A DNA stretch of 31,167 nucleotides, the filler included, from an uncultured virus (IMG/VR IMGVR_UViG_2061766007_001353) (lineage: Duplodnaviria > Heunggongvirae > Uroviricota > Caudoviricetes). It is 2 parts of one record of this genome, joined end to end, with 100 filler letters (N's around TTAATTAATTAA, not from the genome) between each part and the next. Parts side by side here need not be neighbours in the genome. Positions count along the whole stretch, not along the records: positions 1 to 29,461 come from IMGVR_UViG_2061766007_001353; 1 more part is not named here. One strand, 5' to 3'. Made by a program: the position numbers and the translations under genes. Positions 7,394-30,071 of this stretch are shown here, in pieces (within the stretch, counting starts at the first letter, position 1; each line of letters opens with the position of its first letter). The notes beneath the pieces were generated by a model. The model saw only the letters and a program-made list of their open reading frames with translations. It ran no database searches and was not told where the DNA came from.

Positions 7394-7810
7394 ATGCAGA
7401 TAAAGTCAGAGGAACGTGTTAAGAAGCATGGGGAAGTATTTACAAATAATAGAGAGGTAAATGCTATGCTTGACTTAATACCTAATATAACTGTTGATAT
7501 GACTTTTTTAGAACCGACTTGTGGAAATGGAAATTTTGTTGTTGAGATAATGAAACGAAAGTTTGATTTATGTAAGAAAAAACCAGATTATATACGAGCG
7601 TTAGAAAGCGTTGTAGCAATAGATATTATGGCTGATAATATCCAAGAGTGTAAGCAAAGGGTAAAAGATTTGTATTTGTCTTATGGACAAAAAGAAAACA
7701 TAGATGTTATTCTTGATACACAAATATTTCAGGGAAATAGTTTAGCAATAATGAGGTTATTGGAAAAATGCCAAGATGGACAAGTTGTTATGTTGACCCA
7801 AGAGCCATAA
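7394..7810 (+). CDS. DNA amino-methyltransferase, N-terminal SAM-binding half
   Basis: Motif X GEVFT and motif I FLEPTCGNGNF; no NPPY. Confidence 0.8.
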   Translation: MQIKSEERVKKHGEVFTNNREVNAMLDLIPNITVDMTFLEPTCGNGNFVVEIMKRKFDLCKKKPDYIRALESVVAIDIMADNIQECKQRVKDLYLSYGQKENIDVILDTQIFQGNSLAIMRLLEKCQDGQVVMLTQEP

Positions 7811-8945
7811 AAAACGAAGGACAAATGGGCTTATACAAATGCGAGAGGTGTGGTAGGCTGCATTGGTATAAAATGTGTGCAAGAAAAAGCAAAGCAGAGT
7901 ATGACAGAGGTGAGGAGCTTGAAACTCACGCATATAGTTTCATCCATACCGACGAACAGCGAAACTCCGCTTTGTTTCGGAGGTTAAAAGATATGAAATT
8001 TGACGTAATTATAGGGAATCCGCCCTATCAATTAAGCGATGGTGGGCATGGAGCAAGTGCAATGCCAATATATCATCTGTTTATTCAACAAGCAAAACGA
8101 TTAAATCCGAGATATTTAACCATGATTATACCTGCAAGGTGGTATGCTGGTGGACGTGGTTTAGAAAATTTTAGAGATGAAATGTTACATGATGATAGAA
8201 TAAGTATATTAGTTGATTATCCTGTATCTGAAGATTGTTTCCCTGGTGTGAATATTGAAGGTGGTATTTGTTATTTTTTATGGAATAGAGATGATAAAGG
8301 AATATGCCTAGTTAAGACTTATAAGGGAAATAATAAAATTTCTGAAATGAAAAGACCCTTATTAGAAGAAAATTGTAAAACTTTTATTCGATATAACGAA
8401 GCAATATCTATTTTAAGAAAAGTTCAAGCAAAAAAAGAAAAATTATTAATTGACCAAATTAGTTCAATGAAACCGTTTGGCTTACGTACTTATTTTGATG
8501 AATATGAGCAAAATGAATNNNNNNNNNNNNNNNNNNNNNNNNNNNNNNNNNNNNNNNNNNNNNNNNNNNNNNTACTCAATGGATACCTTTATATAAAGTA
8601 ATTATTTCAAGAGCTTATGGAATGGGAAATACTCAACCTTATCAGGTAATAAATAAACCAATAAATGCTGGGAAGAATTCGTGCTGTACAGAAACCTATA
8701 TAGTTTTAGGAAATTATCAAAATAAAATAGAAGCTCAAAATTTATATAATTATATTAGAACTCGTTTGTTTAGGTTCTTAGTATTGTTAAGAAAAAATAC
8801 ACAGGATGCTCCAAAACATGTTTATTCATTTGTTCCTATCCAAGATTTCAACGAAGAATGGACTGACGAAAAATTATACAAAAAATACGGATTAACACAA
8901 GATGAAATTGATTTTATCGAATCAATGATAAGACCTATGGATTAA
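7768..8945 (+). CDS. Eco57I-like N6-adenine methyltransferase catalytic and target-recognition part (one gene, broken in the ORF track by the N gap 8519-8572)
   Basis: FDVIIGNPPY, IIPARW, FPGV.IEGG. After the gap the frame TQWIPLYKVIISRAYG runs into ORF 8622-8945, which ends WTDEKLYKKYGLT..EIDFIESMIRPM. Confidence 0.8.
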
Positions 8946-9152: not shown

Positions 9153-9985
9153 AAACAGGGGATGATTTTGCATTTAGCATAACACAAAACGGAAAAGAAC
9201 TAGATAAAAGCAAATATACTTGGGATGAAAAAACAAGAACATTAAGTACTGTAGAAAGTAACCTAGTATTAGATTTCTTTGGGTATGACGAAGTAACATT
9301 CAATACTGGTTCACACTGTACATTTAAGACTGGTCATAGTTGTACNNNNNNNNNNNNNNNNNNNNNNNNNNNNNNNNNNNNNNNNNNNNNNNNNNNNNNN
9401 NNNNNNNNNNNNAATAGTTGCACATTCAGAACTGGTTCCGATTGCGTAGCTGTAAGACGAGATATTTTTGAGGTTATAATATTACCTAAAAACGAAACAG
9501 TGCAATTATGCCCTGGTGGTATAGAAGGTTATGTGAAAGACGGTTATTATTATAAAAACAACAAAAAACAATACAAGGCGATAATAGCAGACAAAATATT
9601 GTCAGAAATAATTAATCATAAAGGTAATGTTTATAGAGTTAAAAATTACGGTTCAGATAAAATAACTTATTTGATTAAAGACGGTGATATATACTCTCAT
9701 GGTGATACATTAAAAGAGGCTAAAGACAGTTTAATTTATAAAATCTCAAACAGAGATACATCAATGTATAAAGATTATACACTTGATACAAAAATTACAC
9801 TTGAACAAGCAATAAAGATGTACAGAACAGTTACAGGAGCTTGTGAGGGTGGTACCAGGCATTTTGTTGAAACTCACGAATTACCAAAGAAAATGACAGT
9901 AAAAGAATTAATTGAAATTACACAAGGTCAATATGGTAATAGAGAATTAGTAGAATTTTTGAGGACGGTAAGTAAATGCAGGTAA
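9146..9985 (+). CDS. Second 8-aa CTFxTG repeat protein (repeat tract partly in a gap)
   Basis: Same N-terminal NGKELD.S.YTWD segment, same repeats and near-identical C-terminus as 6338-7393. Confidence 0.8.
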   Translation: MVKTGDDFAFSITQNGKELDKSKYTWDEKTRTLSTVESNLVLDFFGYDEVTFNTGSHCTFKTGHSCXXXXXXXXXXXXXXXXXXXXXXXNSCTFRTGSDCVAVRRDIFEVIILPKNETVQLCPGGIEGYVKDGYYYKNNKKQYKAIIADKILSEIINHKGNVYRVKNYGSDKITYLIKDGDIYSHGDTLKEAKDSLIYKISNRDTSMYKDYTLDTKITLEQAIKMYRTVTGACEGGTRHFVETHELPKKMTVKELIEITQGQYGNRELVEFLRTVSKCR

Positions 9986-13551: not shown

Positions 13552-14688
13552 ATGGCAACAAAAACAAAAAGTGCGAATAGTGCTACAAAGACACTAGACG
13601 CAGATAATATGAAAGTCCCTATGGTTGAAACAGGTTGTTTGCCCTTTGACCTAGCAATGACAAATGGTAAAGGTTTACCTTTAGGCAGTTCTATACTTCT
13701 ATATGCAATGCCAGGTGTAGGGAAGACCACCTTGTTCGCAGATGTAACAAGAAATTTGCTAAGAAAAGCTAAAGAAAAAGACATACCTTTTAAAGTATTA
13801 TTTGTAGACGTAGAGGGTAGTACAGAACTTTTAGTAAGTATGGGACTCAAACCATATATAGTATCTGGTGATATTATTGTTAAGACAGGTCAAATAACTT
13901 TCGGGGAACTTTCAAACATGTACGAAAAAGTTCTAGCATGGCATGAAGGTGCAGACTCTAGGAAGTTAGACGAAGAGTATAAAGATGTTAAGTTGATTAT
14001 TGTAGACTCGCTATGCCAAGTACAATCTCAAGCTTTACTGGATAAAGACGTAGACGACGGTGATTTCGGTTCTAACGCTAAAGAACGTGCTAGATTCTAT
14101 CCTAAATTCTTAGGTAGATGTAAAACAGCAGGTGTAACAAGTATGTTTATTACGCAAGTACGTGTTAAACAAGGGGCACAAGCATTTGAGGATCCTAAAC
14201 GTCCAGCATGTACAGATACAGACATACATAATTGTGAGATATGTTGTAAGTTGAGTAAAGGTGCTAATACTACAGTAGCAGGAAAGAAAGAAGTTAAAAC
14301 TACTTTTGGGGTAAAACAATTATCGTCACGTGGTATTATTAATATTAAAACGTCAGGGACTGGAAACGTTAAAAATAGATTTTGTACAATTCCTGATATT
14401 GAATGCTTAATAGAGTACGGTAAAGGTGTTATTAATTCATATACAGTTAAAGAAATGTTGATGAATTTAGGGTACATTAAGCTAAGTGGTAGTAGATATT
14501 GCTTTGGGGACGAGATTGTAGCAGCAATGGGTTGGACAGACGTAGAACCCAATGTTGGTATAGAGAAAGTTCCATTTAATCAACGTATTTCAGCAAATAC
14601 TAGTGAATTAGTAGGATTTTTGAAGAGTAAAGATAGTTTTCTTGTGTTGCCAGAAAATTCAGTAGACTATGGGGATGGTCTTACTTAA
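13552..14688 (+). CDS. RecA/UvsX-family recombinase
   Basis: ETGCLPFD, Walker A AMPGVGKTT, FVDVEG, Walker B IIVDSL, FITQVR, VKNRF. Confidence 0.85.
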   Translation: MATKTKSANSATKTLDADNMKVPMVETGCLPFDLAMTNGKGLPLGSSILLYAMPGVGKTTLFADVTRNLLRKAKEKDIPFKVLFVDVEGSTELLVSMGLKPYIVSGDIIVKTGQITFGELSNMYEKVLAWHEGADSRKLDEEYKDVKLIIVDSLCQVQSQALLDKDVDDGDFGSNAKERARFYPKFLGRCKTAGVTSMFITQVRVKQGAQAFEDPKRPACTDTDIHNCEICCKLSKGANTTVAGKKEVKTTFGVKQLSSRGIINIKTSGTGNVKNRFCTIPDIECLIEYGKGVINSYTVKEMLMNLGYIKLSGSRYCFGDEIVAAMGWTDVEPNVGIEKVPFNQRISANTSELVGFLKSKDSFLVLPENSVDYGDGLT

Positions 14689-14704
14689 TGGTAAGTGTCA
14701 AATT

Positions 14705-14739
14705 CTAACGCTAATGTTCTTCCTCCTTTCTAGCGTTAG
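14705..14739 (+). promoter_or_regulatory. Hairpin with an anti-Shine-Dalgarno loop
   Basis: CTAACGCTA / TAGCGTTAG 9-bp stem enclosing ATGTTCTTCCTCCTTTC. Confidence 0.5.
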
Positions 14740-14767
14740 GTTAGTTGCCTTATATAAGGCAACTAAC
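14740..14767. terminator. Perfect 28-bp palindrome; probable (bidirectional) terminator
   Basis: GTTAGTTGCCTTAT|ATAAGGCAACTAAC after the recombinase gene. Confidence 0.65.
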
Positions 14768-14769
14768 AT

Positions 14770-14798
14770 TTGACAGTACACGATATTTGTAATAATAT
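14770..14798 (+). promoter_or_regulatory. sigma70-type promoter
   Basis: TTGACA 14770-14775, 17 bp, TAATAT 14793-14798. Confidence 0.7.
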
Positions 14799-14836: not shown

Positions 14837-15664
14837 ATGATTCAAAGTATAAAAGAGTCTGATTTTGTTAAGGCACTTGTAGAGGAAGTTGATGATACTA
14901 TACAAGTACAGATAGTAGACAAAGAGACTAAGAAAGAATTAGATTTAGATTTAGACGGTAAGACAGACGTATTAGTAGGTCATGGGGATAAAGAGATTTT
15001 AAATCCTGACGCTGAAAAAATGTCTATTGTAGATGACGAAGAAAAAGTCAGTGAAGACTTAGAAGAAAAAGAAGATTTGTATGAGTTTGATCAAGTTGGT
15101 AATTACGTTGAAAGTAGGGAACAGTTCATGGACTTACCTATTTGGAAATGTGTAGCTGTTGATTTGACTAAGTTAATTGAAGACTATTCAAACGAGGTTG
15201 GTGGGGATAAAGAGGATGCAGAGATAGTATCTATTATATCACCAGATGAAATTGTAAAATTAGCTATTGAAAATGATACGTTAAAAGATCAAATTAGATA
15301 TACTTACTATGAGTCACAGGTAGACGGTTCATATATAGGTGATTCAAGATATTCTGAAGACTTGTTAAAGTTGTTAAAAGAACATGGTATTACTTATATG
15401 GAATCTTTTGGTAGTGGTAGTGTGGCAAATATTGGCTACTCACCAAAAGAAAATAAATGGTATGGCTGGTCACATAGAGCATTCTACGGATTTGGTTTAG
15501 GTGACGTTGTACAAGAGGGCGATATAACAAGCATACCAGCTTTAGAAGACTCTTATGCAGTGCAACACCCTGAAATGTGTTATAATTTGCCAGTAGGTTT
15601 CACAGCATTTACATTAAATGACGCTAAGAGAATGGCTATGGCATTTGCAGATTACGTTGGATAA
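14837..15664 (+). CDS. Acidic hypothetical phage protein with a C-terminal IGYS...KWYGWSHRA motif
   Basis: 275-aa ORF after a promoter; conserved-looking aromatic motif, function unknown. Confidence 0.75.
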   Translation: MIQSIKESDFVKALVEEVDDTIQVQIVDKETKKELDLDLDGKTDVLVGHGDKEILNPDAEKMSIVDDEEKVSEDLEEKEDLYEFDQVGNYVESREQFMDLPIWKCVAVDLTKLIEDYSNEVGGDKEDAEIVSIISPDEIVKLAIENDTLKDQIRYTYYESQVDGSYIGDSRYSEDLLKLLKEHGITYMESFGSGSVANIGYSPKENKWYGWSHRAFYGFGLGDVVQEGDITSIPALEDSYAVQHPEMCYNLPVGFTAFTLNDAKRMAMAFADYVG

Positions 15665-15665
15665 T

Positions 15666-15875
15666 ATGTTAAATATTGACGAAGTATATGATGATATAGG
15701 TGAGACTATTCAACGAATTACAGAGTTGAATAGTCAATACATAGGAAAGCAGATGACAGAAAAAGAAAGAACAGACGTTTTGGACGCTTTGTCATTTGCT
15801 TACCTAAAATTAGAGAAATTAAGGGAACAGTTAAAGAAGGATATTATAGAAAATGGAAATGAATTGTTTGGATAG
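15666..15875 (+). CDS. Small hypothetical protein
   Basis: ATG at 15666, immediately after the upstream stop, preferred to 15618. Confidence 0.6.
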   Translation: MLNIDEVYDDIGETIQRITELNSQYIGKQMTEKERTDVLDALSFAYLKLEKLREQLKKDIIENGNELFG

Positions 15876-18736: not shown

Positions 18737-19507
18737 ATGAATGTAGATTTAATTAGTCATACACCTAACATACTAGAGGTAATATATAGAGCTGCAAGAA
18801 CTTGTTATAGTGCAATGACACCAAGAGATATGTGGAATAAAGTTCTCCGAGAAAATTTGTCTGAAGAGGAACTAAAGGGTAAAATGACTTTTTTAATAGA
18901 TAAAGTTTTAGGTAGTTGTCATGAGAGTATCGCAGAACATGCTTACTTTACTTTTGCTGTAGAGGGTATTGACAGAGCAACCCTTGCACAAATTACGAGA
19001 CATCGTACTGGTATTGCTTTCTCAGTACAGTCACAAAGATATGTCGAAATAAAAGAAAGTAAAAAAGACTTGGTAAAATTACTAGATAATTATGACCAAG
19101 CAGAAATATATACATTAGTAGATAAATACTTTGTAGTAGATAGAGAAGACCATGCTTTGCAACATATTTGTTTGATGTCTTTAATTAACTATAGAGATCT
19201 AATAGAAAATCATGGTAAGAAAGCAGAAGACGCTAGAGCAGTCTTACCAAATTGCACGAAAACAAATATGATCATTTCAATGAACTTGAGAGAATTTATG
19301 CATATCTGTAATTTACGTTTATGTACAAAGGCACAACTACCGATAAGACAAATGGTACAAGCAATGGTTAAAGAGGTAGTAAAAGTAGAACCTGCAATTA
19401 GTAAATATTTAGTACCTAAGTGTGTGTCTATGGGTTATTGTAATGAATCAGATAGTTGTGGCAGAGTTAAAGTTACGAAAGAAGATTTAGTAGGATTGCA
19501 AAAATAA
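18737..19507 (+). CDS. thyX: Flavin-dependent thymidylate synthase
   Basis: HESIAEH, QITRHR...SVQSQRY signature, EDAR.VLP, NLRE, AQ..IR. Confidence 0.95.
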   Translation: MNVDLISHTPNILEVIYRAARTCYSAMTPRDMWNKVLRENLSEEELKGKMTFLIDKVLGSCHESIAEHAYFTFAVEGIDRATLAQITRHRTGIAFSVQSQRYVEIKESKKDLVKLLDNYDQAEIYTLVDKYFVVDREDHALQHICLMSLINYRDLIENHGKKAEDARAVLPNCTKTNMIISMNLREFMHICNLRLCTKAQLPIRQMVQAMVKEVVKVEPAISKYLVPKCVSMGYCNESDSCGRVKVTKEDLVGLQK

Positions 19508-20283
19508 TGAACTACATGGGAAGCAAGAGAAGACTAGCTAAGTATATAGTACCTATACTACAGCACATAATTGATATGCATAACTTAAAATATTATGTAG
19601 AACCGTTTTGTGGTGGTTGTAATATTGTGGACAAAATAAAAGGTATTCCGAGAATTGCAACAGATTATCATAAGTACTTGATAGAGTTATACCGTAATAT
19701 TGATAAGCTTTCTACACTGGACACAAATCTTAGCAGAGAGGAGTACAATAATATTAGGGAGTCTTATAAACAAAAAGACAAAAAGTATGAAGATTGGTAT
19801 TATGGTGCTATTGGCTTCTTAGCTTCCTATAAAGTTAAATTTTTTGATTGTTATGGGGTGAGAGACAGTAAAAATTCTAGGAACTACTTTGAGGAACGTA
19901 TTAGAGGGTTGATAAAGCAAGCTCAAGATTTAGCAGACGTTAAATTTTACGCTAAAGACTATATGTATATATCGAAGTTAGAAAACTGCTTAATATATTG
20001 TGATCCACCTTATAAAGATACAAAAAGATATGCTACGGGTAAATTTGACCATGATAAATTTTGGGACGTAATCAGAGAAGTGTCGAAGAAAAATATAGTT
20101 TTTGTTAGCGAACAAATAGTACCAGACGATTTCAAAATAGTTTTCGAGAAAGACTTAAAATGTACATTAGATGCTGATAAAAGTAAAAAGACACACTCTA
20201 TTATTTCTGAAAAATTCGTAACAATAAATAATATAGAAGGATTAGAAGATTGGATAAAAGACAGCAAGCTAATAGAGAGATAG
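19507..20283 (+). CDS. Dam-like (D12 class) DNA adenine methyltransferase
   Basis: MNYMGSK, EPFCGG and YCDPPY motifs. Confidence 0.9.
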   Translation: MNYMGSKRRLAKYIVPILQHIIDMHNLKYYVEPFCGGCNIVDKIKGIPRIATDYHKYLIELYRNIDKLSTLDTNLSREEYNNIRESYKQKDKKYEDWYYGAIGFLASYKVKFFDCYGVRDSKNSRNYFEERIRGLIKQAQDLADVKFYAKDYMYISKLENCLIYCDPPYKDTKRYATGKFDHDKFWDVIREVSKKNIVFVSEQIVPDDFKIVFEKDLKCTLDADKSKKTHSIISEKFVTINNIEGLEDWIKDSKLIER

Positions 20284-20462
20284 TTAAGCATGTACAAAGT
20301 GTTATAGAAGAACACCCTGAATTAAGATTTCACCAAATTTTATGGCACCTTAATATAGAAGATGGTACAGACCAATTCTATGAAGAGAGTACAGCTACAT
20401 TAGCTAGATTACAAGGGTCTTTTACGGAACAAAATAATATTGAAGAGTCTTTGGAACTTTAA
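20250..20462 (+). CDS. Small hypothetical phage protein (HPELRFHQIL motif)
   Basis: 70 aa; P.LRF.Q and D.FYEES pattern typical of small phage ORFs. Confidence 0.7.
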   Translation: MDKRQQANREIVKHVQSVIEEHPELRFHQILWHLNIEDGTDQFYEESTATLARLQGSFTEQNNIEESLEL

Positions 20463-20465
20463 AAC

Positions 20466-20494
20466 TTGACAAGCATGTGAAAGCATGTTATACT
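20466..20494 (+). promoter_or_regulatory. Strong sigma70-type promoter driving the non-coding region; tandem AAGCATGT boxes in the spacer
   Basis: TTGACA 20466-20471, 17 bp, TGt-TATACT 20489-20494. Confidence 0.8.
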
Positions 20495-20500
20495 AGAAAT

Positions 20501-20760
20501 ATCAAAAGGTTTCATATAACCTACGAGACAGATAAGTAAATTATATGACCAAATTCTGTGAGGGATAATCAGACGGTAAATTTTCTCCGATAGCGTAAAA
20601 ATCGAGTTTAAATCTAAACGACGTTAGAATAGATTTCGGGCTTGTGGTGACGTCAGGACCACGTTGGTTGATTCTGGTCTAGAAACCAACTAGAATATAT
20701 GTAGGAAGAAGTAATTGCTCTTCTTACATATACTCGAACAAAACTAGTAAATTCACTAGA
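20501..20760 (+). ncRNA. Candidate structured ncRNA, 5' domain (multi-branch junction)
   Basis: No ORF of 60 aa or more; TCGAGT/ACTCGA closes four consecutive hairpins. Confidence 0.55.
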
Positions 20761-20772
20761 CAAATTGAACAT

Positions 20773-21171
20773 TAATAACTTAATATGTGTACAGTTGGCT
20801 GAACAAACTTGACAGAGTTTAAAGCATTATGTTATGAGGTATGGAAACACCTTCATACTCTTATCAAAGGGGAAGTAACATAAATACAACTTCTTTATGA
20901 ACTACAAGTACCTGTAGGAACTACTAATTATCTCTGCAAAGGGAACTATTAGTAGGGTAGCTTAAAATTCCACTTACGGGGTACACTGCCAAAGTCTACC
21001 ATGGAGCTAAGCAATACTATTTGAGGATGTCTGGTAGCATGTTCATGACAATCATGCGTCTAATTTAAAGCAAAGAGTAGCTAAATTTGTGAGACGAAAC
21101 TTGTGAACGTTTATAGAGATAGAAGTTATAGGTAATCCTTAATCCTATACTGTACACATATTAGGTTATTA
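20773..21171 (+). ncRNA. Candidate large structured ncRNA, ~400-nt domain closed by a 22-23-bp terminal helix
   Basis: 20774-20795 pairs with 21149-21170 (one G-U); at least 7 internal helices, a GCAA tetraloop and an 8-bp candidate pseudoknot. Confidence 0.65.
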
Positions 21172-21227
21172 TAATAAATTCCATAAATAACACCACAGTC
21201 ATGGTGTTACTCCTTTAAAAACGGTTA

Positions 21228-21262
21228 GGTCACTTAAAACTTAGTTTATAAGTGGCTTTTTA
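21228..21262 (+). terminator. Rho-independent terminator ending the non-coding transcript
   Basis: GGTCACTTA...TAAGTGGCT stem followed by TTTTATT. Confidence 0.7.
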
Positions 21263-21281
21263 TTATGTAGTATGAGTTAAT

Positions 21282-21310
21282 TTGACACATGCTTTTGCAT
21301 GTGGTAAGAT
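21282..21310 (+). promoter_or_regulatory. sigma70-type promoter with a palindromic CACATGC-TTTT-GCATGTG operator-like spacer
   Basis: TTGACA 21282-21287, 17 bp, TGg-TAAGAT 21305-21310. Confidence 0.75.
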
Positions 21311-21352
21311 AGTAGTATAAGAAATAAGGGAATAGGGTAGTAGATAAATAAG

Positions 21353-21817
21353 ATGGGCTTAGTGGTCAAAGAGTTATTTGAGGAGTTCTGCAAGGACGAT
21401 TTAAGTACGTATTATAAAACTCGTTTACAGCTAGAGGGTGCAATGTCTGAGAAATTTGTTGTTTTAGAACTAACAAAGAAAGAGTTAGCTAAAATAGAAA
21501 AATCAGGACGTAGTGATAGATTAGCACCGTACATTAAAGTAGTGGGTTATGAAATTATAGATAACCCTAAAGAAGTCAATTACTTCAATGATGAGATAGC
21601 ATTAAACCTATTGCAGTTAGTAATGGAGCAATTTTATGTTACGAAAAAGGGTTCTGGACACTGGGTTTCTTTTAATGCATTTAAGAAAGGTGACGGTTTT
21701 TCTGTTCAAACACCACGTTCTTATTCATTAAAAGATGCTATAGCTCATTTAGTATTAAGAGTTAAAGATAGTTTAGATAGGCATAAAGTAGTGTCAATGT
21801 TAAAGAGAAAGGATTAA
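21353..21817 (+). CDS. Hypothetical protein
   Basis: 154-aa ORF after a promoter. Confidence 0.7.
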   Translation: MGLVVKELFEEFCKDDLSTYYKTRLQLEGAMSEKFVVLELTKKELAKIEKSGRSDRLAPYIKVVGYEIIDNPKEVNYFNDEIALNLLQLVMEQFYVTKKGSGHWVSFNAFKKGDGFSVQTPRSYSLKDAIAHLVLRVKDSLDRHKVVSMLKRKD

Positions 21818-22645: not shown

Positions 22646-23521
22646 ATGATAAAGAATTGTTTTAACTATGTTGCAAGTAAAGATAGGTTGCTTGCACAAA
22701 TTAAGCCGTTATTTGACGTAACTAAGAAAAATTTTGTAGATTTATTTTGTGGTAGTGGTGTAGTAGGTGTAAATTGCTTAGATAGTTTTAGTAATGTACA
22801 TCTAAATGACGGTTGTTGGCAAGTAATTAGAATGCTAGAGTATTTTACTAATAGTAGTGTTGATAAGTTACTTAGTGAAATCGGTTCTTGCATTAAGAAA
22901 TATAACTTGAATAAGTGTAATAAAGAGGGTTTCTTAAAAGCGAGAGACGTTTATAACACTTTATGTAATACAGAGGATACGTTTAACCCTATACTTTGTT
23001 ATTGTTTAATAACACATGCTTTTAGTTATAATATAGTATTTAATAAGAATGGTGGTTTCTCAGTACCGTCTGGTGCAGGTAGAAGTTACTTTAACTTAAG
23101 TTTGAGAGATAAGTTAATTGCTTTTACAGGCATGTTACAAGAAAATAAGAAGAAATTGTCTTTCAGTAGTGTACACTCTACTAATTTTGATATGTTTGTT
23201 AAAGGTATAGACGTAAGTGATACTTTCTTTTATGTGGATCCACCATATTATATTAGTGACAGTTCTTGTAGTAGAAGTTATGGTTTGAGATGGACAAAAG
23301 AATTAGATCTGAGACTTCTTTCTTTTTTAGATGAATTAGATAAGGGGCATGCTACTTTCGCTTTATCTAATACTATAGAGAATAATGGTTTAATTAATTC
23401 TCATTTAGCGAACTGGGCTGAAAAGTACAATATACATGACTTAGACGTTACTTATGATTACTGTCATCACCAACGTAAGAATAGAGGAACAACAAGGGAA
23501 GTTCTTATTACTAATTATTAA
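22646..23521 (+). CDS. Dam-like (D12 class) DNA adenine methyltransferase
   Basis: FNYVASK, DLFCGSG, YVDPPY, FALSN and C-terminal EVLITNY. Confidence 0.9.
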   Translation: MIKNCFNYVASKDRLLAQIKPLFDVTKKNFVDLFCGSGVVGVNCLDSFSNVHLNDGCWQVIRMLEYFTNSSVDKLLSEIGSCIKKYNLNKCNKEGFLKARDVYNTLCNTEDTFNPILCYCLITHAFSYNIVFNKNGGFSVPSGAGRSYFNLSLRDKLIAFTGMLQENKKKLSFSSVHSTNFDMFVKGIDVSDTFFYVDPPYYISDSSCSRSYGLRWTKELDLRLLSFLDELDKGHATFALSNTIENNGLINSHLANWAEKYNIHDLDVTYDYCHHQRKNRGTTREVLITNY

Positions 23522-23659
23522 CTTTTAATTTATAGAGANNNNNNNNNNNNNNNNNNNNNNNNNNNNNNNNNNNNNNNNNNNNNNNNNNNNNNNNNNNNNN
23601 NNNNNNNNNNNNNNNNNNNNNNNNNNNNNNNNNNNNNNNNNNNNNNNNNNNNNNNNNNN

Positions 23660-29461: not shown

Positions 29462-29561
29462 NNNNNNNNNNNNNNNNNNNNNNNNNNNNNNNNNNNNNNN
29501 NNNNNTTAATTAATTAANNNNNNNNNNNNNNNNNNNNNNNNNNNNNNNNNNNNNNNNNNNN

Positions 29562-30071
29562 ATTTTCTCTCCAACGTGTAGGTATTATTAAGAACACGTC
29601 TTTCGCATTCGCAGTATCTAGTATTTTACAAGTCCATTTTTCATATTCACTGTATGGTGGATTACAAAAGATATATTCTACTGGTTTATCTATTAGCATA
29701 GTAGTATTGAAATCTGTACCTAAAACAATAACGTCTTTATCTAATTTTTGTAGTAATGTAGTACTCTTCTCAATAACATAGTATTCAGATAAATATACTT
29801 GTGCTTTTCTAACATTTATCACATTTACTAAACCTTTTTCGTATTTCTCAACTTCATTATTATATAATCGGTCTTGCTGATTTACAAACTCGTTAAAATA
29901 CTTTTTAAAATTACAAGTTCCACAACCTATGTCTAAAATATCTATATCTTTACTACAACTAGTATTGTTTAAATAGTCGAAAATAACTTTTACCATTTCT
30001 TTAGTTGTAGGGTAAAATTCAAAATCCTCGTTATTCTCTTTTAGTTCTTTTATTAGTGCTTGTGTACTCAT
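29562..30071 (-). CDS. Class I SAM-dependent DNA amino-methyltransferase, N-terminal part (DUF4942-type; truncated by gap)
   Basis: FEFYPT, ILDIGCG, IFCNPPYS and IIP.RW motifs; RBS AAAGGA. Confidence 0.8.

Follow-up and report, generated by a model that had tools for sequence, protein, structure and literature searches.

Positions 20501-20760 of a 31-kb window from an uncultured phage (IMG/VR record IMGVR_UViG_2061766007_001353; the window is the whole stretch of DNA analysed, 31,167 nucleotides) form, in the reading that we hold with moderate confidence, the 5' part of a single non-coding transcription unit of ~760 nt in a rumen phage, a part that is modular and not built around a single junction. 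This 5' domain is probably a real, expressed and modular part of a new orphan phage non-coding RNA (ncRNA). The unit as a whole may well consist of two conserved and stably accumulating modules, a hairpin block (about 20564-20737) and a 3' domain (about 20803-21157), which are preceded and separated by fast-changing spacers. On equally balanced grounds, the 5' part itself would divide into a weakly structured, fast-changing leader (20501 to about 20600), the hairpins proper (20610-20732) and a hypervariable linker (20738-72). An initial annotation, made from the sequence, had described the stretch as a separate RNA domain in which a closing stem (P0) gathers four hairpins (H1 to H4) on one junction, one of the loops being palindromic; its stems and coordinates are all present in the sequence.

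In the mechanism that we propose, the host RNA polymerase would transcribe the whole unit, as its promoter and putative terminator suggest, and the hairpins are predicted to fold locally, H2-H4 forming a string of hairpins. The hairpin block and the 3' domain would accumulate as stable RNA while leader and linker would serve as spacers, a step at which the ends of RNA-library contigs hint weakly. The pieces might arise either by cleavage at or near a long helix of the type used as a substrate by RNase III, or by a second start near 20793. Finally, the loop hexamers of H1 and H2, (G/A)ACGUU and GACGUC, may pair loop-to-loop, within one molecule or between copies, as suggested by shuffling statistics and by one natural substitution.

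A putative transcription unit with its own promoter

The unit occupies an 890-bp gap (20463-21352) free of open reading frames (ORFs), between an ORF at 20250-20462 and another at 21353-21817. Four sequencing runs in which parts of it were found were aligned as assembled contigs: the DNA run X4, which represents a close relative, and the RNA runs X3, X7 and X8 (three studies). The features that bound the unit, and the promoter-like sites found by a pattern scan, are as follows.

20466-20494, plus strand: promoter P1, TTGACA, 17 nt, TATACT, with TG before the -10 element; 11 of 12 consensus positions
21188-21209 and 21227-21258, plus strand: two 3' hairpins, the second followed by UUUUUAUUA; the whole feature extends over 21188-21266
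21282-21310, plus strand: next promoter, TTGACA, 17 nt, TAAGAT; it serves ORF 21353-21817 and marks the end of the RNA unit
4517, 11720, 14770, 18082, 20466, 21282 and 24826, all plus strand: TTGACA-N17-TAnnnT sites from the pattern scan

From the position of P1, transcription of the unit would start near 20501. The P1 region (20449-20506) carries no differences in X4, whose contig spans 20449-20660 and departs from the window for the first time at 20507. Exact TTGACA-N17-TAnnnT sites occur seven times on the plus strand versus 0.78 expected, mostly in front of genes, which argues that the phage uses host-type promoters and that the RNA unit has its own; reliance on host sigma-70-type promoters appears to extend throughout the region. 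The gap holds no ORF of at least 40 amino acids, and the ten ORFs of at least 20 amino acids that overlap it include none longer than 39 amino acids, a length reached on the minus strand. Because of this lack of ORFs, and because of one-base indels in the X4 relative, the unit is read as non-coding. Its plus strand (20498-21265) folds at -198.8 kcal/mol with a z-score of -7.6 (20 shuffles); the z-score of the minus strand is -5.5. At the 3' end, the hairpin at 21227-21258 is terminator-like and is read as the terminator; a consensus terminator scan called no terminator there, and the only Rfam signal in this region is a weak resemblance to the terminator shape of ctRNA_pT181 (E 10).

Two side observations concern the borders of the unit. 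Both flanking promoters contain CATG-rich spacer repeats, GCATGTGAAAGCATG (20473-20487) and CATGCTTTTGCATG (21287-21301), a pattern present four times in the window versus 0.5 expected, and these may be a shared operator. In X4, 164 bases (20284-20449) covering most of the 70-amino-acid ORF 20250-20462 are swapped for 184 other letters; this mosaic joint lies just upstream of the RNA gene, and the promoter right after it is identical.

Hairpins of the 5' domain

Pair probabilities come from partition-function calculations, which placed the window sequence with its natural flanks in four contexts; the X4-type haplotype, hereafter called the variant, was folded as well. The elements of the 5' domain are the following.

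20512-19 / 20541-48, plus strand: H0, a hairpin in the variable leader (20501-20600); pair probability 0.44-0.84 in the window, 0.2 in the variant
20602-20607 / 20732-20737, plus strand: closing stem P0, TCGAGT/ACTCGA, 6 Watson-Crick pairs; base 20732 is common to P0 and H4
20610-20636, plus strand: H1, AAATCTA/TAGATTT, a 7-bp stem with the 13-nt loop AACGACGUUAGAA; near-palindrome GACGUU at 20620-25
20644-20662, plus strand: H2, GTGGT/ACCAC, a 5-bp stem with the 9-nt loop GACGUCAGG; palindrome GACGUC at 20649-54
20648-55, plus strand: the perfect 8-nt palindrome TGACGTCA noted in the initial annotation
20663-20690, plus strand: H3, GTTGGTT/AACCAAC, a 7-bp stem enclosing a further stem of 4 bp; no spacer separates it from H2
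20696-20732, plus strand: H4, a 14-bp stem (one G-U) and 2 inner pairs, with an AAUU loop
20744-59, plus strand: H5, CUAGU/ACUAG, in the hypervariable linker (20738-20772); pair probability 0.96-0.97

H4 reaches a pair probability of 0.95-0.96 in window and variant alike, H3 one of 0.76-0.87 in the window and 0.49-0.66 in the variant, and H2 one of 0.77-0.84 and 0.65-0.77, respectively. These models make H1 marginal and leave H2, H3 and H4 as the robust hairpins. Upstream of the hairpins, the first 100 nt are without a fold signal, the 150-nt window 20476-20625 having a z-score of +0.5.

Natural variation in a close relative

In the flanking coding DNA, X4 differs from the window by about 2% (16 differences in 662 nt). 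The leader (20507-20600) has 6 substitutions and 4 one-base indels, i.e., 10 changes in about 94 nt; in the linker (20738-72), 3 bases are substituted and 14 are inserted. Whichever way the two 4-base insertions are ordered, the X4-type variant is predicted to fold a different hairpin in place of H5. Between leader and linker, the hairpin block (20601-20737) has three substitutions, G20620A and A20629G in the loop of H1 and A20713G in that of H4, all of them in hairpin loops. Stems H1-H4 and P0 are all unchanged, which is compatible with the structure and is not covariation.

RNA-library contigs and the 3' domain

Processing of the 5' domain into an RNA of its own had been suggested, and part of it was assembled separately in one RNA library: X3 contains a 166-nt contig on 20566-20706 with a depth of 234.7. 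Its 25 letters before 20566 are presumably an Illumina adapter remnant, and the next two bases match 20564-65, position 20565 being the T of the X4 type. From this one contig, numerous short inserts with an end at 20564 seem likely and, given a stranded library, plus-strand RNA. The other module is closed by a long helix.

20773-21171, plus strand: 3' domain, the 400-nt domain of the initial annotation, closed by a 23-bp helix (20773-95 / 21149-71, 96% complementary)

This 3' domain was assembled in all three RNA runs, over 20808-21157 in X3 (depth 604.2), 20804-21155 in X7 (6.6) and 20803-21081 in X8 (7.4). The three contigs have no loose ends, whereas the X4 DNA contig continues across 20803, a weak hint that RNA termini lie near 20803-08 and 21155-57. 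In X3 the 3' domain takes up about 0.1% of the run (604 x 350 letters / 213.5 million), word depth being a poor measure of expression. Neither the flanking genes nor the leader (20501-20563) nor the linker (20707-20802) had a real contig in these three runs, just pieces of 34-40 nt with 4-7 mismatches; such missing coverage, like that of the 5' block in X7 and X8, was not counted as evidence.

Since the RNA contigs start 8-13 nt inside the 23-bp helix on its 5' side and end within its 3' strand, a simple staggered cut does not fit them. Just upstream of the contig starts at 20803-08 lies a weak promoter-like site (TAGACA, 18 nt, TAATAT at 20757-86; 9 of 12 matches), and transcription from it would be expected to start near 20793, some 10 nt ahead of these contigs.

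Separately, the 10-mer AAACTTGACA of the main promoter (20462-71) recurs at 20805-14. The arms of the 23-bp inverted repeat end in TA, and one X4 contig departs from the window sequence after 21170 while a second enters it at 21161, with a 10-nt overlap that suggests an insertion or mosaic joint exactly at the helix end. From its sequence, the inverted repeat could represent the terminal repeats of a miniature mobile element.

Loop hexamers and a possible kissing contact

The hexamer GACGUU in the loop of H1 and GACGUC in that of H2 can form 6 contiguous pairs, as many as are reached by 114 of 20000 loop shuffles. A contact of the H2 loop with GACG in the neighbouring H1 loop had been raised as a possibility, and it turns out to be statistically the most unusual feature of the domain. 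Both loops are moreover self-complementary when G-U pairs are allowed, which is the case in 349 of 20000 shuffles; these loop tests, and the count over all hairpin loops given below, were chosen after the data had been seen. The predicted duplex energies are -8.1 kcal/mol for H1 with H2 and -7.5 kcal/mol for H2 with itself. No change is listed in the H2 loop in X3 or X4, nor anywhere else in H2 or in H3. In the H1 loop, the X4 substitution G20620A turns GACGUU into the perfect palindrome AACGUU, a single substitution in a contig of depth 4.5 and a hint at most. On these sequence features, the two loops may well touch each other, either in cis or from one copy of the RNA to another.

The self-complementary H2 loop, taken on its own, holds up in part. 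The palindrome is present, and GACGUC (20649-54) lies in a loop that is predicted to be accessible (unpaired probability 0.49-0.96), but its frequency is that of chance. The window contains 4.5 palindromes of 8 nt per kb, hence 1.2 expected in 260 nt, where one is seen; GACGTC occurs once in the window versus 1.26 expected; and 1512 of 20000 shuffles of the H2 loop contain a 6-nt palindrome. Among the 18 hairpin loops of the RNA, three hold a self-complementary hexamer versus 1.2 expected (P = 0.077). The rate of 8-nt palindromes is corrected for N, as runs of N inflate naive counts: the window contains 534 N in 17 runs (e.g., 23539-23659 and 9346-9412), none of them within 20463-21352. The modest statistical support for kissing loops comes from the pair of related loops and not from the palindrome alone. 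In OLE and GOLLD, according to PMC12286853, loops that switch between palindromes are taken as evidence of symmetric contacts between chains.

Weighing the modular reading

Several results weigh against two stable modules within one expressed unit. Library contigs cannot prove transcription, strand, ends or level, and the 5' block was assembled in only one of the three RNA runs examined (X3, not X7 or X8). The fold signal is ordinary for this phage: among 414 sliding windows of 150 nt, the domain comes no higher than 11th, with 20626-20775 (z -3.69). The minus strand of the domain folds equally well (z -3.12), and therefore folding energy alone cannot choose the strand. H1 has a pair probability of 0.45-0.54, and one of 0.16-0.17 in the variant. 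That three substitutions all miss the stems is weak evidence, (59/137)^3 being about 0.08, and at a depth of 4.5 single differences in the X4 contig may be errors. At about 2%, the hairpin block has diverged as much as the coding DNA beside it, so that it shows no special conservation, and it is leader and linker that are specially variable. Near-identical haplotypes being the only homologues found, covariation backs none of the base pairs and the stems are simply invariant. Finally, G20620A cuts the pairing of H1 with H2 from 6 pairs to 5, while improving self-pairing between copies.

The depth of the 3' domain in X3, 2.6 times that of the 5' contig (604 vs 235), and its assembly in three of three RNA runs would suit a precursor in which the stretch is a mere leader or spacer between the promoter and a functional 3' domain, with hairpins that slow exonucleases or are incidental in AT-rich DNA and with no function of its own. 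The hypervariability of leader and linker, the ordinary local z-score for this phage and the 23-bp helix around the 3' domain point the same way. Long helices of this kind serve as processing stems in rRNA operons and T7 early transcripts, and the likeness to these RNase III precursors, a matter of general knowledge, extends to a helix that brackets an abundant 3' piece and to variable spacers between conserved blocks; the difference is that the contig ends misfit a simple staggered cut and that cleavage is here putative. We nevertheless consider a mere spacer unlikely: changes are about five times rarer in the hairpin block than in the adjoining leader, its three changes avoid the stems, the 5' contig has a depth of 235 in an RNA library, and related hexamers in two adjoining loops are improbable by chance. 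Even if the 5' block is a spacer only, the finding still maps a new phage RNA gene and shows the probable borders of its stable pieces.

The full model of the initial annotation, in which P0 closes H1-H4 into a five-way junction and the GACGUC loop drives homo-multimerisation through kissing loops, as in phi29 pRNA or the ROOL/GOLLD cages, appears somewhat less probable still. P0 exists, with a probability of 0.68-0.72 in isolation (20595-20745 or 20600-20739 alone), and a closing helix of at least 6 Watson-Crick pairs arises in about 5% of shuffles of the two 15/16-nt flanks (937 of 20000). Against this, the probability of P0 is 0.26-0.31 if the RNA is cut to 20564-20737/42, and just 0.03-0.06 with natural flanks and 0.01-0.02 in the variant. 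A rival pairing, GAGUUU/GGGCUU, extends H1 with a probability of 0.28-0.47 (0.39-0.47 in the four contexts with natural flanks), and in one context a second CGAG at 20524 also competes with P0. When the inner pairs of H3 and H4 are left out, the junction model comes out about 5.5-6 kcal/mol less stable than the minimum-energy fold of 20564-20737. Because energy models are weak on multibranch loops, these values are not taken as a refutation; the modelling leaves a single junction closed by P0 possible and not favoured. P0 is also invariant among the haplotypes, which provides no covariation for the enclosing junction. What stands of a separate 5' domain is that its hairpins pair only locally in the full-length fold and that the rewritten linker divides it from the 3' domain; the single junction is not supported. 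A further pairing of the initial annotation, GACCA (20547-51) with TGGTC (20675-79), is complementary as described, but has a probability of 0.00-0.01, and A20548T in X4 breaks it with no partner change listed; we regard it as refuted.

The multimerisation part of that model draws on the predicted accessibility of the GACGUC loop, in which no change is listed in three haplotypes, and on G20620A, which makes the H1 loop a perfect palindrome and thereby improves self-pairing and weakens pairing in cis. PMC12286853 also documents symmetric palindromic kissing loops in OLE, GOLLD and ROOL. These arguments are offset by the chance-level frequency of the palindrome, including the three of 18 loops, and by the lack of covariation and of any Rfam match.

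It is rather improbable that, apart from H4, the domain consists of chance hairpins in AT-rich non-coding DNA and is no biological domain at all. The whole 260 nt do have a fold z-score of just -2.44 (2 of 200 shuffles as good), the rank of the best window is unremarkable, and stems of 5-7 bp, the 6-bp P0 and the palindrome are each common by chance. Chance does not easily account for the core (20600-20740), whose z-score is -3.44 with 0 of 200 shuffles as good, nor for H4, the longest short-loop hairpin in the window: dinucleotide shuffling of the 260 nt yields a contiguous stem of at least 13 bp in 6 of 2000 trials. The stems are moreover untouched in a relative whose leader differs by about 10%, and the complementarity of the two loops is rare in shuffles, as given above.

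Inverted repeats acting in DNA, as protein-binding palindromes, an origin or a packaging signal, can be set aside as very improbable: the perfect 8-bp palindrome, the equally good fold of the minus strand and the CATG-rich repeats of both flanking promoters speak for them, but 8-nt palindromes occur at background rate, repeats are limited to two-copy families of 10-19 nt with no direct repeats or iterons among them, the G-U pairs (one in H4, four in the H1 extension) work on plus-strand RNA alone, and a near-consensus promoter precedes the stretch, which is also represented in an RNA library.

Comparison with known structured RNAs

GOLLD and ROOL are large structured phage RNAs that have recently been shown to build RNA-only cages, and only a few classes of such cage-forming RNAs are known to us. 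Like GOLLD, the modular unit described here is phage-encoded, long (many GOLLD members exceed 800 nt; the unit is about 760 nt) and two-part, its 3' part being the better kept and its 5' part the looser one. It differs in that the GOLLD model of Rfam fails to match it even with E values of up to 10 and that family and covariation are lacking, and GOLLD is often near tRNAs, whereas the window contains no tRNA genes. Symmetric kissing loops with palindromic cores are a GOLLD feature (PMC12286853). With ROOL the unit shares its origin in a phage of the cattle rumen or gut and its nature as a long non-coding RNA with its own transcription unit; a match to the ROOL family of Rfam and tRNA neighbours are again missing. 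ROOL is reported to be very abundant and to form kissing loops between chains (PMC12286853, PMC5737381).

Two smaller systems offer partial parallels to the predicted loop contact. The phi29 pRNA has two complementary loops in one molecule, so that copies can pair loop to loop, and here the loops of H1 and H2 are predicted to be able to form 6 pairs. The differences are considerable: there is no Rfam match, both loops are also self-complementary, the RNA is far longer, and its neighbours are genes of nucleotide metabolism and DNA methylases with no identified packaging gene. The kissing hairpin of the HIV-1 dimerisation initiation site (DIS) has a short stem and a 9-nt loop with a 6-nt, G+C-rich palindrome flanked by purines on both sides. 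H2 likewise combines a short stem with a 9-nt loop and a 6-nt palindrome, and dimerisation is here predicted at most; the palindrome of H2 starts directly at the stem, without purine flanks on both sides, and the biology is unrelated.

The RNA resembles GOLLD and ROOL in lifestyle and is a member of neither, nor of pRNA: the covariance models fail to match, and tRNA neighbours are missing. What emerges is an orphan RNA gene of comparable size, with its own promoter and no Rfam family, assembled in cattle-rumen RNA libraries of several studies. Should its 5' block be a loop-loop association module, it would offer a small handle of about 175 nt on the assembly of such RNAs. A bolder reading, which we regard as doubtful, is that large rumen-phage RNAs able to assemble without protein include a third, unrelated class, of which this transcript would be the first member: the ACGU-centred palindromic loops of H1 and H2 would be two "hands", each pairing with its own copy on another molecule and chaining or ringing the RNAs, and the compact 3' domain would be the body. 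If true, this would explain the high-depth assembly in rumen RNA libraries of several studies despite the near-absence of the phage from sequence collections.

Searches for relatives

An Rfam scan of the whole window at gathering thresholds gave no matches. At E up to 10, both strands of 20300-21400 gave only three weak ones (ctRNA_pT181, Hatchet and manA); none was to ROOL, GOLLD or phi29 pRNA, and none of these three covariance models was matched. ARAGORN found no tRNA genes in the 31-kb window; the usual ROOL setting near tRNAs, which is typical and not strictly defining, is lacking here, and the phage setting is present. Searches with blastn and megablast against 50,697 phage records returned no DNA match to the window, and at E up to 5 the same records gave only nine noise matches, each with E = 2. 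Twenty public runs from 14 studies contain the stretch or part of it; almost all are labelled bovine gut, and 11 of the 20 are recorded as RNA. The other copies are all near-identical and come from bovine-gut runs, with no more distant relative in any collection searched.

Searching through the neighbouring genes was no more productive. In IMG/VR, the 154-amino-acid ORF next to the unit and the Dam methylase gave no relatives. The thymidylate synthase ThyX led to two loci, L001 (42% identity) and L002 (35%), which have no other gene in common with the window and no RNA similarity. A 571-amino-acid protein led to seven loci, with a 34-residue match and a 34-38% relative of the next gene, and again with no RNA similarity. 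None of the nine IMG/VR loci has an ORF-free gap over 368 nt. Among 5.8 billion proteins, the 154-amino-acid neighbour retrieved only itself. Exact RNA patterns of 19-24 nt had no matches in viral, metagenome or genome contigs; two genome-contig matches to a further RNA pattern, in high-GC bacteria, were rejected as chance since only 21-24 nt match.

As to other possible roles, no antisense target of the domain was found within the window, where the longest complementarity is 12 nt at E 0.4. A decoy RNA of the repeat type was discarded, as no tandem or direct repeats in the window suggest one. The literature searched, which did not extend to the supplements of PMC10690425 (a survey of structured RNAs in phages) and PMC10465536 (a rumen virome database), gave no description of this RNA.

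Genomic setting

The window, 31 kb of a phage-like genome with a low GC content (about 32%), has nearly all its genes on the plus strand. Recognisable genes code for a T5 A1-like protein, dNMP kinase, polynucleotide kinase, ligase, resolvase, a UvsX-like recombinase, dUTPase and ThyX. The proteins are distant from those of any deposited phage, the best tblastn match of the A1-like protein having 38.9% identity. At least five DNA methyltransferase-like genes are present in the 31 kb (7394-8601, 19507-20283, 22646-23521 and 29514-30071), two or three of them of the D12 adenine class, a load that suggests heavy investment against restriction.

Two other places in the window fold strongly. The strongest local fold lies at 15676-15825, with a z-score of -10 on 25 shuffles and of -7.0 on 200; here a pair of long hairpins, with stems of about 11 and 14 bp, sits inside the ORF 15618-15875. 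At 14626-14775, in the gap after the UvsX-like gene and just upstream of the promoter at 14770, two strong hairpins (z -4.9 to -7.0) include the 12-bp stem GUUAGUUGCCUU/AAGGCAACUAAC, and this pair is probably a terminator.

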